This document shows, piece by piece, positions 1 through 4,291 of a stretch of 4,536 nt of DNA (its first letter is position 1; the number at the start of each line of letters is the position of its first letter). Source of the DNA: a virus (taxonomy: Duplodnaviria; Heunggongvirae; Uroviricota; Caudoviricetes); IMG/VR virus record IMGVR_UViG_2778261451_000003; one strand, written 5' to 3'. The notes below the pieces were generated by a model that had not been told where the DNA came from, did no database searches, and was given only the letters and a program-made list of their open reading frames with translations. The position numbers were made by a program, and so were the translations under genes.

Positions 1-181
1 CAGCGAGTAGGTATATGGGATAATCGCGGATTCAGGTGCTGGTACTGAATTCACCGGGAGGCACCCGGCACCATGCACTTCAATAGATTCTCTCCACATT
101 ATGGATATTCTTTCAGAATATCCCACGCAGACTTTGTGTAAATGTTAACAAATGTGCGTTTTATTTGATCTGATTCGCTGT

Positions 182-211
182 TTGAGCGTCCAAAACAACG
201 GTATATATAAT
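182..211 (+). promoter_or_regulatory. Candidate sigma70 promoter for the first lipoprotein gene: -35 TTGAGC (182-187), 18-nt spacer, consensus -10 TATAAT (206-211)
   Basis: Motifs read directly; the -10 is a perfect TATAAT inside a TATATATAAT run, about 30 nt upstream of the ATG at 241, with a GAGGA ribosome-binding site at 233-237. Not experimentally supported. Confidence 0.4.
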
Positions 212-240
212 CCTTTACTATATGACATATGTGAGGAAAA

Positions 241-669
241 ATGGGTTTTCGTAGCGCATCAATTCTTACGTTGATTATTAGTGGGATTATTATCGGGTGC
301 ACTGATGCTGTATCGACAAATTATCATGACCGTACATCATATTACTCCGATAAAGCAATAGAGACACAGTATGTGAGTTCATCTGAACGTACTTCTGATG
401 TTAGTGAGGATATCCGTCTGTATGCCCATCAAATCAAGAGCGCCATCGAAAAACAGTTCGGGGATGCGAGTAAGTATTCAGGAAAAGAGTGTACACTGAG
501 AATGCATATGGCCCCGAATGGCCTTCTACTGGAGGTTAAAAGAGAAAGTGGAGACCTCGATTTATATCGTGAAGCGATGAATGCGATAAAGAATGCTGAT
601 ATACCTGCCCCCCCTTCGCCGGAAGTATATAAAGTATTTCAAAATGGGGTGCTGGATTTTAAACCCTGA
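241..669 (+). CDS. Outer-membrane lipoprotein with a TolA C-terminal domain III-like domain (142 aa)
   Basis: Six-frame ORF with GAGGA ribosome-binding site. N-terminus MGFRSASILTLIISGIIIGC has a positive n-region, hydrophobic core and lipobox IIGC; Cys at 298-300 is followed by Thr, not Asp, which under the +2 sorting rule predicts outer-membrane sorting. The C-terminus YAHQIKSAIEKQFGDASKYSGKECTLRMHMAPNGLLLEVK...IPAPPSPEVYKVFQNGVLDFKP aligns by eye with the recalled E. coli TolA C-terminus (YAGQIKSAIESKFYDASSYAGKTCTLRIKLAPDGMLLDIK...IPKPPSQAVYEVFKNAPLDFKP), including the terminal LDFKP. Confidence 0.8.
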   Translation: MGFRSASILTLIISGIIIGCTDAVSTNYHDRTSYYSDKAIETQYVSSSERTSDVSEDIRLYAHQIKSAIEKQFGDASKYSGKECTLRMHMAPNGLLLEVKRESGDLDLYREAMNAIKNADIPAPPSPEVYKVFQNGVLDFKP

Positions 670-819
670 TATTTATTGTTTTGTAATAAACGGTTTCGGC
701 TTAGGTTTGTTCTGACACAACTACGGCACTGAGCTAAATTTAGCGGATAGTCAGCTCTGAGCCAGTGGCGGACGTAACAACTACTATTGCTGAGATTTTA
801 ATGGATTGAGGAGCAAGAA

Positions 820-1215
820 GTGGGATTAAAGAAAATCGTTATGTTGACTTTTTGGGTCGGTTTTGTTGCGGGATGCACACCTTTACACCCTTCAGATTGC
901 CACAAAACTACTGCTACAGGTAGTTGCAGTTCAGGACGCTGGGATGATCAGGATGAATGGGGGGCGCAAGCGCGGGGAATCAGAGCTGCAATTAATGCCA
1001 AACTTGATGAGCCGCATAACTGGAAAGGGAAAAAATGCAGGTTGCATATGGAATTCTCTCAGGATGGCACGGCGTTAAAAATATCTACCAGTAACGGTGA
1101 TAAAGCCTATTGCGAAGCGATAAAGTCCGCAGCTCATAAAGCCAAATTTCCGGCCTTCAACAATCCGGAAGTCTACAGAGATTTTCAGAAATCTGGCTTT
1201 GACATGCGAGGTTAG
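820..1215 (+). CDS. Second, divergent TolA domain III-like outer-membrane lipoprotein, paralog of 241-669 (131 aa, GTG start)
   Basis: GAGGAG ribosome-binding site at 807-812, 7 nt before GTG 820. N-terminus MGLKKIVMLTFWVGFVAGC has lipobox VAGC (Cys at 874-876, +2 Thr). C-terminus KKCRLHMEFSQDGTALKISTSNGDKAYCEAIKSAAHKAKFPAFNNPEVYRDFQ parallels the KECTLRMHMAPNG...PEVYKVFQ block of ORF 241-669 and the TolA domain III CTLRIKL...ALCQAAL...VYEVF pattern. Confidence 0.75.
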   Translation: MGLKKIVMLTFWVGFVAGCTPLHPSDCHKTTATGSCSSGRWDDQDEWGAQARGIRAAINAKLDEPHNWKGKKCRLHMEFSQDGTALKISTSNGDKAYCEAIKSAAHKAKFPAFNNPEVYRDFQKSGFDMRG

Positions 1216-1340
1216 CTCTTCAATTACTATATCTCATTCATAGCAAACTGACAGATTTGATGATGTTCTATATACGAAACCTGTGATGTCAAGTCTGAGC
1301 TAATACAAATAAACATAATATCAGAGAAATACATTTTATT

Positions 1341-1364
1341 AGCTCGCTACGGCGAGCTTTTTAT
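1341..1364 (+). terminator. Intrinsic terminator closing the lipoprotein cassette: stem AGCTCGC (1341-1347), loop TACG, stem GCGAGCT (1352-1358), then T-run
   Basis: Perfect 7-bp GC-rich stem with 4-nt loop followed by TTTTT; sits 126 nt after the second lipoprotein stop and about 100 nt before the holin start. Confidence 0.6.
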
Positions 1365-1466
1365 ATTGCATCGTCTCCAGCATATATATCAATTAAGGCT
1401 CTGATTGATGTGTCTGAAAGCCTACACATAATAACTATGCCATCCGTTCCGTGCGGAGGTGAGGCT

Positions 1467-1682
1467 ATGAAATCCATGGACAAAATTTCAACAGGCATTG
1501 CCTACGGCACCTCCGCAGGCAGTGCTGGCTACTGGTTTTTACAGTTGCTCGATAGAGTAACTCCGTCACAGTGGGCTGCAATCGGTGTGCTGGGTAGTCT
1601 GGTATTTGGCCTGCTGACGTACCTGACAAACCTTTATTTCAAGATTAAAGAAGGCAAGCGTAAGGCTGCACGGGGAGAGTAA
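1467..1682 (+). CDS. Phage-21-type pinholin (class II holin, S21-like), 71 aa, dual-start motif
   Basis: Translation [71 protein letters not shown] has two transmembrane segments and a charged C-terminus, matching the recalled S21/EssD family. Met1-Lys2-Ser3-Met4 is the classic antiholin/holin dual start. Strong ribosome-binding site GGAGGTGAGG at 1455-1464. The upstream extension of the six-frame ORF from 1410 has no ribosome-binding site and is not used. Confidence 0.9.
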
Positions 1683-1686
1683 TTCA

Positions 1687-2037
1687 ATGACTCAAAAATA
1701 TGAACTGATTGTGAAAGGGATCCGCAATTTTGAGAATAAAGTTACGGTAACTTTAGCGTTACGGGACAAAAAACGCTTTGACGGTGAAATTTTTGACCTG
1801 GACATCTCGCTGGACCGTGTTGAAGGTGCCGCGCTGGAGGTTTATGAGGCAGCAGCCAGAAGGAGCATCAGACAGGTCTTCCTGGATGTTGCTGCCGGGT
1901 TATGTGAAGGGGATGAGCAGTCGCCGGAAAAGCGCCCCGTAATTTTAGATGCGCAGAATGTGTGGATAACCTACAAAGGGAAGCTACCAGGAAGAATTAC
2001 TGGTTCTCTGAAGACTCCTCCAGCATCACAACCTTAA
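1687..2037 (+). CDS. DUF1327 / YdfR-like protein of unknown function, inserted between holin and endolysin (116 aa)
   Basis: ATG at 1687 lies 4 nt after the holin stop TAA (1680-1682), with ribosome-binding site GGGGAGAG at 1672-1679. No transmembrane segment. The N-terminal two-thirds (MTQKYELIVKGIRNFENKVTVTLALRDKKRFDGEIFDLD...EAAARRSIRQVF) resemble, from memory, the YdfR family that occupies the same holin-endolysin slot in the E. coli Qin prophage. The C-terminal ~40 aa could not be assessed. Confidence 0.65.
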   Translation: MTQKYELIVKGIRNFENKVTVTLALRDKKRFDGEIFDLDISLDRVEGAALEVYEAAARRSIRQVFLDVAAGLCEGDEQSPEKRPVILDAQNVWITYKGKLPGRITGSLKTPPASQP

Positions 2038-2100
2038 GTCACTGACCGGAACAGATAAACCTGTCCGTGGGCAGAAACCGATAAATCCTGATAAATATCC

Positions 2101-2634
2101 ATGAACGCAAAAATCAGATACGGCCTGTCGGCTGCCGTTCTGGCACTGATTGCCGTCGGTGCGCCCGCGCCTGATATTCTCGACCAGTTTCTGGATGAAA
2201 AAGAAGGTAACCACACAACGGCATACCGCGATGGGTCCGGCATCTGGACCATCTGTCGGGGTGCCACGATGGTGGATGGAAAACCCGTTTTTCCCGGTAT
2301 GAAACTGTCGAAGGAAAAATGCGACCAGGTCAACGCCATTGAGCGTGATAAGGCGCTGGCATGGGTGGAGCGCAATATTAAAGTACCACTGACCGAGCCA
2401 CAAAAAGCGGGTATCGCGTCATTTTGTCCCTATAACATTGGCCCCGGTAAGTGTTTTCCGTCGACGTTTTATAAGCGGCTGAATGCTGGTGATCGTAAAG
2501 GTGCATGCGAGGCGATTCGCTGGTGGATAAAAGATGGTGGGCGCGATTGCCGCATACGTTCAAATAACTGCTATGGACAGGTTATTCGTCGTGACCAGGA
2601 AAGCGCATTAGCCTGTTGGGGGATAGATCAGTGA
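2101..2634 (+). CDS. SAR endolysin (signal-anchor-release, T4-lysozyme-like muramidase, glycoside hydrolase family 24), 177 aa
   Basis: The N-terminal segment [17 protein letters not shown] is Gly/Ala-rich and weakly hydrophobic, as in SAR domains. The catalytic E-x8-D-x5-T spacing in [19 protein letters not shown] matches T4 lysozyme E11/D20/T26. Overall similarity to recalled phage 21 R and DLP12 RrrD-type lysozymes. Start has a weak ribosome-binding site. Confidence 0.9.
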
Positions 2635-3098
2635 GCAGAGTCGCCGCGATTATTTATGCTCTGGTTATCTGCATCATCGTCTGCCTGTCGTGGGCGGTCA
2701 ATCATTACCGTGATAACTCCATCGCCTACAAAGAACAGCGTGATAAAAAAGTCAGTGAGCTGAAGCAGGCGACCGCCACCATTACTGACATGCAGCAACG
2801 CCAGCGTGCTGCTGATGTACTCGATGCTAAATACACGAAGGAGTTGGCTGATGCGAAAGCTGAAAATGATGCTCTTCGGCGCAAGCTTGATAATGGTGGT
2901 CGGGTGCTCGTCAAAGGAAAATGCTCTGTGCCATCCTCAGCCGAAACCTCCAGCGCCTCCGGCATGGGCAATGATGCCACCGTCGAACTCTCTCCAGTTG
3001 CTGGACGAAACGTTCTCGGTATCCGGGACGGAATCATCAGAGACCAGACAGCACTGAGAACGCTTCAGGAATATATCAGGACGCAATGCCTTCGATGA
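2631..3098 (+). CDS. Rz: Rz i-spanin (inner-membrane spanin subunit), lambda-like, 155 aa, GTG start overlapping the endolysin stop
   Basis: From GTG 2631 (GTGA overlap with endolysin stop 2632-2634) the protein begins [39 protein letters not shown]..., close to recalled lambda Rz [39 protein letters not shown].... It has an N-terminal transmembrane segment and a coiled-coil periplasmic domain. The six-frame track's TTG 2616 start is an upstream extension. Confidence 0.9.
2851..3057 (+). CDS. Rz1: Rz1 o-spanin (outer-membrane lipoprotein spanin subunit) embedded in the +1 frame of Rz, 68 aa
   Basis: ATG 2851 preceded by AAGGAG (2838-2843). Translation [44 protein letters not shown]... has lipobox VVGC and a Pro-rich mature region, matching recalled lambda Rz1 (MLKLKMMLCVMMLPLVVVGCTSK...KPPPPPAWIMQPPP). 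Lies entirely inside Rz, the classic embedded architecture. Confidence 0.8.
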
Positions 3099-3272
3099 TA
3101 GCGATAATTTTACTCATCATCCTTCACATTTGGCTCTGTAGACAGGGTGGTGATCACTTCTGGAGTGAATCCAGATTAAACATCTCATTGCTGATGCTTG
3201 AAGTTGAGCATCTGGCGCGCGGTAAGGGGCTGCGTTGAAATAAGAGCCAGTCATTAAAAATACCTGGGTTTA

Positions 3273-3298
3273 GCCTCGCATTCGCGGGGCTTTTTATT
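3273..3298 (+). terminator. Intrinsic terminator for the plus-strand lysis operon: stem GCCTCGC / GCGGGGC (one G-U wobble), loop ATTC, then TTTTTATT
   Basis: 7-bp GC-rich stem at 3273-3279 / 3284-3290 followed by a T-run at 3291-3298; about 175 nt after the Rz stop. Confidence 0.55.
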
Positions 3299-3303
3299 GC
3301 CAT

Positions 3304-3333
3304 TACAAAAGCCACTCCCTACAGAGTGGCTTT
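3304..3333 (-). terminator. Hairpin GCCACTC / GAGTGGC (3311-3317 / 3324-3330, extendable by AAA/TTT), followed on the minus strand by TTTTGTAA; candidate terminator for the convergent minus-strand unit
   Basis: Perfect 7-10 bp stem with 6-nt loop. On the minus strand the 3' arm is followed by a 4-U run; on the plus strand by TTT, so it may act in both directions. Sits 45 nt after the stop of the 54-aa minus-strand ORF. Confidence 0.4.
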
Positions 3334-3379
3334 GATAATGGCTTATACCCTACACGGGATAACTTAACTGATATCCCTT

Positions 3380-3544
3380 TTAACGGATAAAGGTATTCAA
3401 GCCTGACACATCATGCGCTGTATCGTCGCCGTATTCCCGTATTAACAGAGACCGTAGCCTGACGGGGAACTCCTTCTGCGCGAGTGTGCGGGAATAATCA
3501 AAAACGATGCACACCGGGGTTACCGGGTACACATATTTCATCAT
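3380..3544 (-). CDS. Possible small ORF (54 aa, MMKYVYPVTPVCIVFDYSRTLAQKEFPVRLRSLLIREYGDDTAHDVSGLNTFIR), hypothetical
   Basis: Hand-translated from the minus strand; below the size cutoff of the supplied ORF track. No convincing ribosome-binding site. GC-richer than the adjacent gene. Sits between the YbcV-like gene and the minus-strand terminator hairpin. Could be a gene remnant. Confidence 0.2.
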   Translation of the reverse strand: MMKYVYPVTPVCIVFDYSRTLAQKEFPVRLRSLLIREYGDDTAHDVSGLNTFIR

Positions 3545-3589
3545 GCCAGCGAGTCCGGTTCTGGCGCGGAAGAAACCGGACGTTATGAT

Positions 3590-4000
3590 TTAGTGCGGAA
3601 ATATTTGTGTAGTGTTCTGAATGTTCTCAGTAAATAGTAATGAATTATCAAAGGTATAGTAATATCTTTTTTGTTCGTGGATATTTGTAACCCACCGAAA
3701 AACTCCTGCTTTAGCAAGGTTTCTTCTGTATTCCTGAAATGTGATCTCTCTGGATTTCAGCTTATTAGAGGTCGTTTCTATAAGATGCCTATCCTTTGAA
3801 AATTTGACAGACACAATGTTTTTTAGGCCCTTTAATAACACTGTATTATCATTTTTTAATACAATATGAACATTCTCTGTGGCTAAATAGTAAATGTAAT
3901 GTGAGACATTGTGACGTTTTAGCTCAGAATAAAACCAGTGATAGTTTAAATCGTTTCGAACTTTATCAAATATTTGTTTAAAAATGACTACCTGATCCAT
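3590..4000 (-). CDS. DUF1398 / YbcV-YdfO-like prophage protein (136 aa from the second ATG)
   Basis: Six-frame ORF 3590-4015. The second in-frame ATG (3998-4000) is preceded by GAAGG at appropriate spacing, whereas the first ATG (4013-4015) has no ribosome-binding site, so 136 aa is preferred. Markedly AT-rich coding sequence. Resembles from memory the YbcV/YdfO family of lambdoid prophage accessory genes in E. coli K-12 (DLP12, Qin); the family assignment was not verified. Confidence 0.65.
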
Positions 4001-4057
4001 AGATAAACCTTCCATGTGATATGAGGGGGCGTAGTCTGCACGATTATCTAAATTGCT

Positions 4058-4291
4058 TCAATCTGGTCTGACCTGCTTTCTGAGCAATTCAGTAATGTCA
4101 CTCTTTTCTTTGTTTGCTTCAGGCGAAACTCTTTTTTCTGAGCACAGTCTCCGGCGGCAGGCTTCAATGACCCAGGCTGAGAAATTCCCGGACCCTTTTT
4201 GATCAAGAGCGATGTTAATTTGTTCAATCATTTGGTTAGGAAAGCGGATGTTGCGGGTTGTTGTTCTGCGGGTTCTGTTCTTCGTTGACAT
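4058..4291 (-). CDS. Small ribbon-helix-helix (Arc/MetJ-like) DNA-binding protein, possibly YlcI/YnfO-like (77 aa)
   Basis: N-terminal basic tail (KNRTRRTTTRN) followed by IRFPNQMIEQINIALDQKGSGNFSAWVIEACRRRL, i.e. beta-strand then two helices as in Arc and CopG-type repressors. First gene of the minus-strand unit, immediately inside cos. Weak ribosome-binding site. Confidence 0.55.
   Translation of the reverse strand: MSTKNRTRRTTTRNIRFPNQMIEQINIALDQKGSGNFSAWVIEACRRRLCSEKRVSPEANKEKSDITELLRKQVRPD

Follow-up and report, generated by a model that had tools for sequence, protein, structure and literature searches.

The β3 edge of the C-terminal domain III of Escherichia coli TolA (TolA III, residues about 334–421) binds the N-terminus of TolB, colicin N and the N1 domain of the filamentous-phage protein g3p (g3p-N1), with D418 and K420 forming backbone hydrogen bonds (PMC4339652, PMC7391070). 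Colicin A binds the opposite edge, at β2 residues L375–P380, with cation-π contacts to K368, K379 and K396 (PMC3365938). The window analysed here is an entire draft contig of 4536 bases (GCA_002549575.1, NOCQ01000072.1) that derives from the late region of a Qin-like lambdoid E. coli prophage. It encodes two putative lipoproteins, paralog 1 (A-type) and paralog 2 (B-type), which share with TolA III (1S62, 3QDP, 1TOL, 2X9A, 3QDR) the Pfam domain, the α/β fold and the C-terminal β3 edge strand. The TolA III cysteine pair Cys363/Cys388 is likewise present in the family, the paralog 1 allele of the window being the exception. Unlike TolA, both proteins lack the transmembrane helix that binds TolQR (domain I) and the long helix of domain II, and display a signal peptide and a short tether instead. 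Their genes lie outside the tol-pal operon (ybgC-tolQRA-tolB-pal-cpoB), on prophages and plasmids. It is tentatively proposed, at slightly less than even confidence, that both lipoproteins would act as import-blocking decoys against Tol-dependent (group A) colicins and filamentous phages.

Entry-blocking outer-membrane lipoproteins are known from phages and plasmids and include Llp, Cor (lambdoid, N15 and phi80 phages) and TraT, which are encoded by moron-type genes. Llp and Cor bind and plug the receptor FhuA and lack homology to host proteins. The binding of FhuA by T5 Llp is documented (bioRxiv 10.64898/2026.03.26.714494). In contrast to Llp and Cor, the window proteins copy a host periplasmic hub and would decoy the translocation domain of the invader. 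Interference at TolA itself also has a precedent. Boeke and colleagues reportedly described, in 1982, a filamentous-phage exclusion by g3p in which the ligand occupies the real TolA. Similarly, Levengood-Freyermuth and colleagues are said to have found in 1993 that overproduction of TolA III in the periplasm gives colicin tolerance and resistance to Ff phages. Both g3p exclusion and the laboratory fragments reportedly titrate the same interaction, that of TolA III with g3p-N1 or with colicin translocation domains. The laboratory fragment is artificial and soluble and is said to leave the cells leaky, whereas the TolA-III copies of the window are natural, predicted to be lipid-anchored and diversified into subfamilies.

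Domain identity, predicted lipid anchor and ligand edges

Both genes lie on the + strand of the window:

241–669, + strand: open reading frame (ORF) of paralog 1 (A-type), 142 amino acids (aa); ribosome-binding site (RBS) GAGGA at 233–237
565–567, + strand: codon TAT for Tyr109 of paralog 1, at the position of TolA Cys388; a rare allele
608–614, + strand: homopolymer of seven C (C7) in paralog 1, the site of recurrent frameshift alleles in public sequences
820–1215, + strand: ORF of paralog 2 (B-type), 131 aa; GTG start; RBS GAGGAG at 808–813

An earlier note on this DNA, made from the sequence letters, had called both ORFs TolA-like, and the profile matches bear this out. Pfam PF06519, the TolA C-terminal domain (TolA III), is matched at 75.3 bits (E=4.4e-21) by paralog 1 and at 54.6 bits (E=1.3e-14) by paralog 2, against a curated gathering score of 25 bits. 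Searches with phmmer against the TolA chains of the Protein Data Bank (PDB) give E = 2e-26 (paralog 1) and 5e-9 (paralog 2). The HMMER alignments of both proteins to E. coli TolA III (1S62, 3QDP, 2X9A, 1TOL) run without gaps, residue numbers being TolA - 279 in paralog 1 and TolA - 290 in paralog 2.

The two proteins display the same architecture ahead of this domain. Paralog 1 begins with a signal peptide that ends in the lipobox IIGC (Cys20 at 298–300, Thr at +2), followed by a Ser/Thr/Tyr-rich tether at aa 21–54 (about 34 aa) and by the TolA-III domain at aa 55–142, which is 58% identical to E. coli TolA 334–421. In paralog 2 the lipobox is VAGC (Cys19 at 874–876, with Thr at +2 and Ala there in most homologs), the tether is about 25 aa long and the TolA-III domain occupies aa 45–131, with 33% identity to TolA III. 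A basic n-region, a hydrophobic core and the lipobox follow one another in both N-termini, and both satisfy the pattern [LVI][ASTVI][GAS]C without Asp at +2. Of 40 diverse standalone homologs with a TolA-III domain, at least 90% keep the lipobox cysteine. By the Lol sorting rule both proteins are predicted to be outer-membrane lipoproteins.

The AlphaFold2 (AF2) model of paralog 2 gives residues 45–131 a predicted local distance difference test score (pLDDT) of 96–98. Its elements, in order helix 46–60, helix 65–68, strand 72–79, strand 85–93, helix 95–107, helix 116–122 and strand 124–130, reproduce the topology of TolA III. Foldseek superposes the model on 3QDP, 2X9A_B, 3QDR_A and 1TOL with root-mean-square deviations of 1.1–1.2 Å; the target-normalised TM-score is 0.85–0.92 for the three chains that consist of TolA III only and 0.52 for 1TOL, a g3p-TolA fusion.

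Neither protein is a bona fide TolA. The matches span only 293–386 of the 387 positions of PRK09510, and because domains I and II are absent neither protein can couple to TolQR or replace TolA. Both miss the PRK09510 cut-off of 213 (100.5 for paralog 1, 53.7 for paralog 2). At the TIGR02794 cut-off of 59.45, paralog 1 passes with 70.1, on its C-terminal domain alone, and paralog 2 fails with 47.2. Paralog 1 owes the name 'tolA' given by the Prokaryotic Genome Annotation Pipeline (PGAP) to this equivalog rule, which fires on the C-terminal domain alone. The same protein is annotated as a pseudogene, 'tolA, incomplete, missing N-terminus', at NZ_CP024245.1 9260–9520 and as a full 'tolA' elsewhere, and both labels are misleading. 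The RefSeq PGAP name for such proteins is 'cell envelope integrity TolA C-terminal domain-containing protein', and PHROG 5772 ('unknown function') is matched by both window proteins (E = 2e-60 and 7e-65).

At the sites contacted in TolA III complexes the proteins compare as follows:

β3, L417–P421: LDFKP in TolA; LDFKP in paralog 1; FDMRG in paralog 2
β2, L375–P380: LLDIKP in TolA; LLEVKR in paralog 1; ALKIST in paralog 2
K368, K379 and K396 of TolA: His, Lys and Lys in paralog 1; Glu, Ser and His (Gln in most homologs) in paralog 2

Mapping onto the complex sites, which the earlier note had suggested as a check, shows that paralog 1 keeps β3 entirely, β2 nearly so, and two of the three colicin A contact lysines (K379 and K396), while paralog 2 has lost all three. 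Judged by these residues, paralog 1 appears to mimic both TolA ligand edges faithfully. Paralog 2 keeps a β3-like strand, differs from TolA III in lacking the colicin A contact lysines and in its added C-x8-C motif, and probably has a different ligand range, although β-strand addition depends weakly on side chains, which limits the inference of ligands from sequence. Of the distinct targets or redox states suggested earlier, distinct targets are plausible from the differing edges, but the redox contrast comes down to a rare single-nucleotide polymorphism. The β3 strand of paralog 1, identical to the TolB-binding strand of TolA (PMC4339652), also suits the main rival to decoy function, TolB titration or Tol-Pal modulation. 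Here the proteins would bind the TolB N-terminus and damp Pal mobilisation, thus loosening the outer membrane for lysis, colicin release, vesicles or conjugation; the gene contexts described below bear on this explanation.

Cysteines, subfamilies and selection

In the gap-free alignment to solved TolA III, C73 (1036–1038) and C98 (1111–1113) of paralog 2 align with C363 and C388. The supposition that paralog 2 retains both cysteines of the TolA pair is confirmed, as is the equivalence of the positions. In paralog 1, C84 aligns with C363 and Tyr109 with C388, so that the first cysteine is kept and the second replaced, as the earlier note had it; this holds for the window but fails as a trait of the family. 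Window positions 1–1400 are those of phage mEp460_ev081 except for the single base 566, the middle of codon 109, which reads TAT in the window and TGT in the phage. The 61-mer 530–590 as found in the window has no exact counterpart in any of 791 complete E. coli genomes, each being one mismatch off, and with G at 566 it is exact in all 791. Similarly, the full-length paralog 1 homologs retrieved, to 65% identity, all have Cys at this position, within the pattern D(L/P)(D/E/G)LCREAM, and the best whole-gene match to paralog 1 in 888 genomes is 99.8%, never 100%. The exact Tyr109 protein is found in three contigs of a large gene collection, the window included. Its recurrence in two further sequencing runs weighs against a simple sequencing error, and A566 is either a real yet rare variant or an error that recurs.

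When 40 diverse standalone TolA-III lipoproteins are aligned, the core cysteine pair shows no variation. Because loss of the pair leaves one periplasmic cysteine unpaired, the Tyr109 allele is more likely damage than design. The core-cysteine contrast between the paralogs is a rare single-base variant and no family property, and it is not to be built on. A tandem pair specialised by its cysteines, in which paralog 1 would lack the disulphide and adopt another redox state and paralog 2 would carry extra disulphides, could appeal to the Tyr at the second cysteine position of the window paralog 1, to the four non-lipobox cysteines of paralog 2 and to the invariance of C27 and C36 in the B subfamily. 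Tyr109 is, however, absent from the 791 complete genomes and from every full-length homolog retrieved, the core pair is invariant across the 40 standalone proteins, and the two window proteins are 28% identical and found separately. For the core pair, specialisation by cysteines is largely refuted, and as a whole it is highly improbable.

The two extra cysteines of paralog 2 that had been assigned to a linker, C27 (898–900) and C36 (925–927), are real, but the supposed linker is the most conserved segment of the protein. With a homolog set of 120 sequences at 78–99% identity (Escherichia, Citrobacter, Enterobacter, Serratia, Raoultella and Klebsiella), C19, C27, C36 and C73 are kept in 121 of 121 paralog 2 sequences and C98 in 120 of 121. 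The least variable part of paralog 2 reads C-A-P-L-H-P-S-G-C-H-K-T-T-A-T-G-S-C-S-S-G-R-W-D-D-Q-D-E-W-G. C27 and C36 also remain invariant in a 28-sequence subfamily alignment extending to 30% identity, and distant cluster representatives have the common pattern lipo-Cys-x(4-10)-C-x8-C. The Cys-rich segment is a deeply conserved subfamily motif and not a loose linker. Its assignment to a colicin TolB box or to a solved fold was dropped, phmmer against the PDB giving a chance match (E=1.8).

The strong divergence noted earlier between the paralogs is borne out by identities of 28% overall and 30% over the domain. The two genes belong to old separate subfamilies and were not duplicated in place. 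With this identity, and with each gene found alone elsewhere, the earlier picture of a tandem pair that diverged in place does not hold, and a recent tandem duplication is rejected. The proposed survey of one-copy and two-copy arrangements covered 5426 complete E. coli genomes. Paralog 1-type genes are present in 888 of these, essentially all chromosomal, with 97 at 80–90% identity; paralog 2-type genes are present in 1269, at 825 chromosomal and 525 plasmid places; in 775 genomes both genes are adjacent, and lone copies are common. The paralog 2 family is widespread in Enterobacterales, and either gene occurs in only 1 of 50,697 phage records.

Purifying selection on paralog 2 is strong. Between it and plasmid copies the synonymous divergence (dS) is 0.53 and the nonsynonymous divergence (dN) 0.055–0.058, a dN/dS of about 0.10. 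The 120 best paralog 2 clusters are all full-length, 119 of them with at least five cysteines and one with four. A decaying second paralog, which the earlier note had named as an outcome that would overturn its view, is rejected on this ratio, on the full-length clusters and on the presence of the gene in 1269 of the 5426 genomes. It is paralog 1, not paralog 2, that shows erosion. Against a divergent A-type gene its dN/dS is 0.41, and about a quarter of the 1177 member sequences of its family are shortened or frameshifted, some of the N-terminal truncations being contig-edge partials, so that the true broken fraction is lower, roughly one in six. Broken forms include a 113-aa form with 123 members and a Shigella sonnei form without signal peptide. 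In addition, at least nine paralog 1 protein clusters are frameshifted exactly at the C7 run 608–614 (PAPLRRKYIKYFKMGCW), thereby losing the last helix and the β3 strand; these frameshifts could reflect slipped-strand switching or assembly error.

The broken paralog 1 forms, the probably damaging Cys-to-Tyr change of the window allele and the PGAP call of a partial tolA pseudogene in some genomes would fit an origin of both genes as non-functional captured 3' fragments of tolA. Such an origin is hardly credible, since both genes come with an RBS and encode a lipoprotein signal peptide that replaces TolA domains I–II, paralog 2 displays a dN/dS of 0.10 and invariant cysteines, and proteins built in this way turn up in different genera and kinds of element.

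Genetic setting and relatives on plasmids

The remaining features of the window are:

1–130, + strand: match to the small RNA STnc100 (Rfam), 51.2 bits against a gathering score of 47; 5' end lost at the contig edge
182–211, + strand: sigma-70 promoter-like site TTGAGC-18-TATAAT upstream of paralog 1; a 10/12 consensus match only
1341–1368, + strand: intrinsic-terminator-like hairpin and T-run, ending the two-gene insert ahead of the lysis cassette
1467–3098, + strand: lysis cassette as a whole, the context downstream of the insert
1467–1682, + strand: P21-type holin of the lysis cassette
1687–2037, + strand: DUF1327, between holin and lysozyme
2101–2634, + strand: phage lysozyme of the lysis cassette
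2631–3098, + strand: Rz of the lysis cassette
about 2851–3057, + strand: embedded Rz1 o-spanin inside Rz, in the +1 frame, with a lipobox and a proline-rich body
right-hand part of the window, opposite strand: DUF1398 and YlcI/YnfO-family genes

The two genes are a moron-like insert, probably independent cargo genes of a Qin-like lambdoid prophage. Both occupy the slot between the Q/pR' (antiterminator/tRNA) region and the P21-type lysis genes, and in complete genomes the prophage around the module has dicB, ydfD, rusA, an antiterminator and two tRNAs on its upstream side. Other phages hold different cargo in this Q-to-holin slot, which we take to be the position occupied by stx in Stx phages. 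Of the marks of a moron, the position and the terminator-like hairpin at 1341–1368 are present, and the promoter is a consensus match only, not conserved at another A-type locus compared (weak evidence). Bases 1–77 are 100% common to Stx and other lambdoid phages, where they lie in unannotated DNA downstream of Q. The holin start MKSMDK is the dual-start motif of the P21 S type; the hydrophobic N-terminus of the lysozyme resembles that of a signal-anchor-release (SAR) endolysin, which would give a pinholin/SAR-endolysin pair with the holin.

Away from this prophage setting, each gene stands in several surroundings. A lone A-type gene lies between Q/tRNAs and a SASA-family esterase gene. Lone B-type genes are found directly after the relaxase gene on IncK/IncI-complex plasmids and in a Citrobacter chromosome. 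In the Serratia marcescens chromosome the B-type gene lies beside GmrSD_N and HEPN genes, in a region (8001–10736) between nrdDG and the phn operon, a defence-island-like setting. On pO157 (NZ_CP017670.1, 3906–6426) the nikB relaxase gene is a pseudogene with flanking insertion sequence (IS) fragments and the B-type gene just downstream is intact. The latter is intact in every pO157 record listed and lies between leading-region genes (psiB, psiA, hok) and toxB. A role in conjugation or plasmid establishment, through entry exclusion or remodelling of the mating-pair envelope and with the prophage copies as hitch-hikers, would suit the B-type gene after the relaxase on MPF_I plasmids, and the A-like genes that adjoin psiA on a Serratia plasmid and exc1/Exc2 on a ColE1-like plasmid. 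This role is a slim prospect, however, as the gene is intact on the non-conjugative pO157 with its relaxase pseudogene and abundant in prophages and chromosomal islands.

More distant relatives of paralog 1 are numerous on plasmids, where a tblastn search gives 720 records at <60% identity, mostly from Klebsiella, with 386 small mobilizable plasmids. The 10,060-bp ColRNAI plasmid NZ_CP026582.3 encodes a cloacin/colicin E3-type bacteriocin (Cloacin, E2 R-domain and Cytotoxic domains), a lysis protein and a 123-aa TolA-III lipoprotein with the lipobox LTAC, the Cys pair and an LDFRP end. At 2725–3458 of this plasmid the stop of the TolA-III gene overlaps the start of a gene whose secreted product, of 121 aa, has a TonB C-terminal domain (TonB_C). 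The two genes form a possible two-route import decoy pair, and plasmids of this type abound in K. pneumoniae. A 'TolA protein' on a cloacin plasmid has been mentioned in passing (PMC10269471). The 6.8-kb ColE1-like Enterobacter plasmid NZ_CP053194.1 encodes a pore-forming colicin with a weak match to the ColA N-terminal domain. At 2509–4267 it holds, consecutively, exc1, an Exc2-family lipoprotein gene and the gene for a 139-aa TolA-III lipoprotein; the signal peptides of the Exc2-family and TolA-III lipoproteins are nearly identical (LVLFIPLF...C). On Klebsiella IncF plasmids (NZ_CP024040.1, 5217–6246) a gene with a Thioredoxin_2 domain lies immediately ahead of a TolA-III lipoprotein gene, and the product of the former may serve the Cys pair as a dedicated oxidoreductase.

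These contexts also bear on Tol-Pal modulation. The position of the window genes immediately upstream of the lysis cassette and the presence of relatives on plasmids with colicin lysis genes agree with it. Yet a terminator-like hairpin stands between the genes and the holin, and the families also occur without nearby lysis genes (IncI/K plasmids, pO157, Serratia and Citrobacter chromosomes). In addition, on colicin plasmids the genes lie with exclusion genes or on the strand opposite to the colicin-lysis operon, and the partner TonB_C domain has no Tol-Pal role. Modulation of Tol-Pal is thus considered unlikely.

Proposed capture of colicins and g3p ahead of TolA

TolA III is a hub in the periplasm, and group A colicins and the g3p of filamentous phages have to grasp it through β-strand addition if they are to enter the cell. 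As import-blocking decoys, the two lipoproteins would each present a copy of this hub from an anchor on the inner face of the outer membrane. Uncoupled from TolQR, such a copy would capture the colicin translocation segment or g3p N1 ahead of the real TolA, and the host of the element would thereby become tolerant. Paralog 1 would take colicin A-type ligands as well as those of the g3p, colicin N and TolB-N-terminus type. Paralog 2, of an older and divergent subfamily, with the fold and a putative disulphide pair kept, the colicin A lysines lost and the extra C-x8-C near its predicted lipid anchor, would probably serve another ligand range.

Decoy function is favoured because the ligand edges are preserved and because the carriers either expose their host to pilus-dependent filamentous phages, as conjugative plasmids do, or live among colicin producers, as do colicin plasmids, gut prophages and pO157. 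It is also favoured because of the laboratory precedent with periplasmic TolA III described above. A further argument is the pairing of a TolA end with a TonB end, which speaks for obstruction of import routes and not for upkeep of the outer membrane; the sole property common to the TolA and TonB ends is that they are parasitised by colicins and phages. A broader generalisation is that the TolA-III lipoproteins of mobile elements (prophages, conjugative plasmids and bacteriocin plasmids) decoy colicin translocation domains and g3p, with differing A and B ligand ranges and with the B-type C-x8-C as a second binding element. This is possible but, on balance, doubtful.

Several points weigh against a decoy function. 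A TolA-III mimic with an intact β3 might sequester the TolB N-terminus and so harm the envelope. The N-terminal motif of paralog 2 has an AF2 pLDDT near or below 50 with both the mixed and the subfamily-only alignments. The promoter is a consensus match that is not conserved between loci, and no expression in the lysogen is claimed. The argument from context works through guilt by association, and a single plasmid type appears to account for the many 10-kb Klebsiella plasmids. Finally, a literature search found no functional study of phage or plasmid TolA-III lipoproteins, and neither window protein matches any PADLOC-DB 2.0 model at E <= 1.

Standalone TolA-III lipoproteins on mobile elements are annotated yet uncharacterised, and they represent a variant of a well-known domain that is new in architecture and probably in function. 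If they are decoys, roughly one in four complete E. coli genomes would have a gene of mobile elements whose product weakens the action of Tol-dependent colicins and filamentous phages by mimicry of a host domain, a mechanism distinct from both specific immunity proteins and receptor-plugging lipoproteins. Such genes would provide natural variants for dissecting the specificity of β-strand addition to TolA III. They would also bear on the ecology of colicins in the gut, on the use of colicins against O157 and Klebsiella and on therapy with plasmid-dependent phages.

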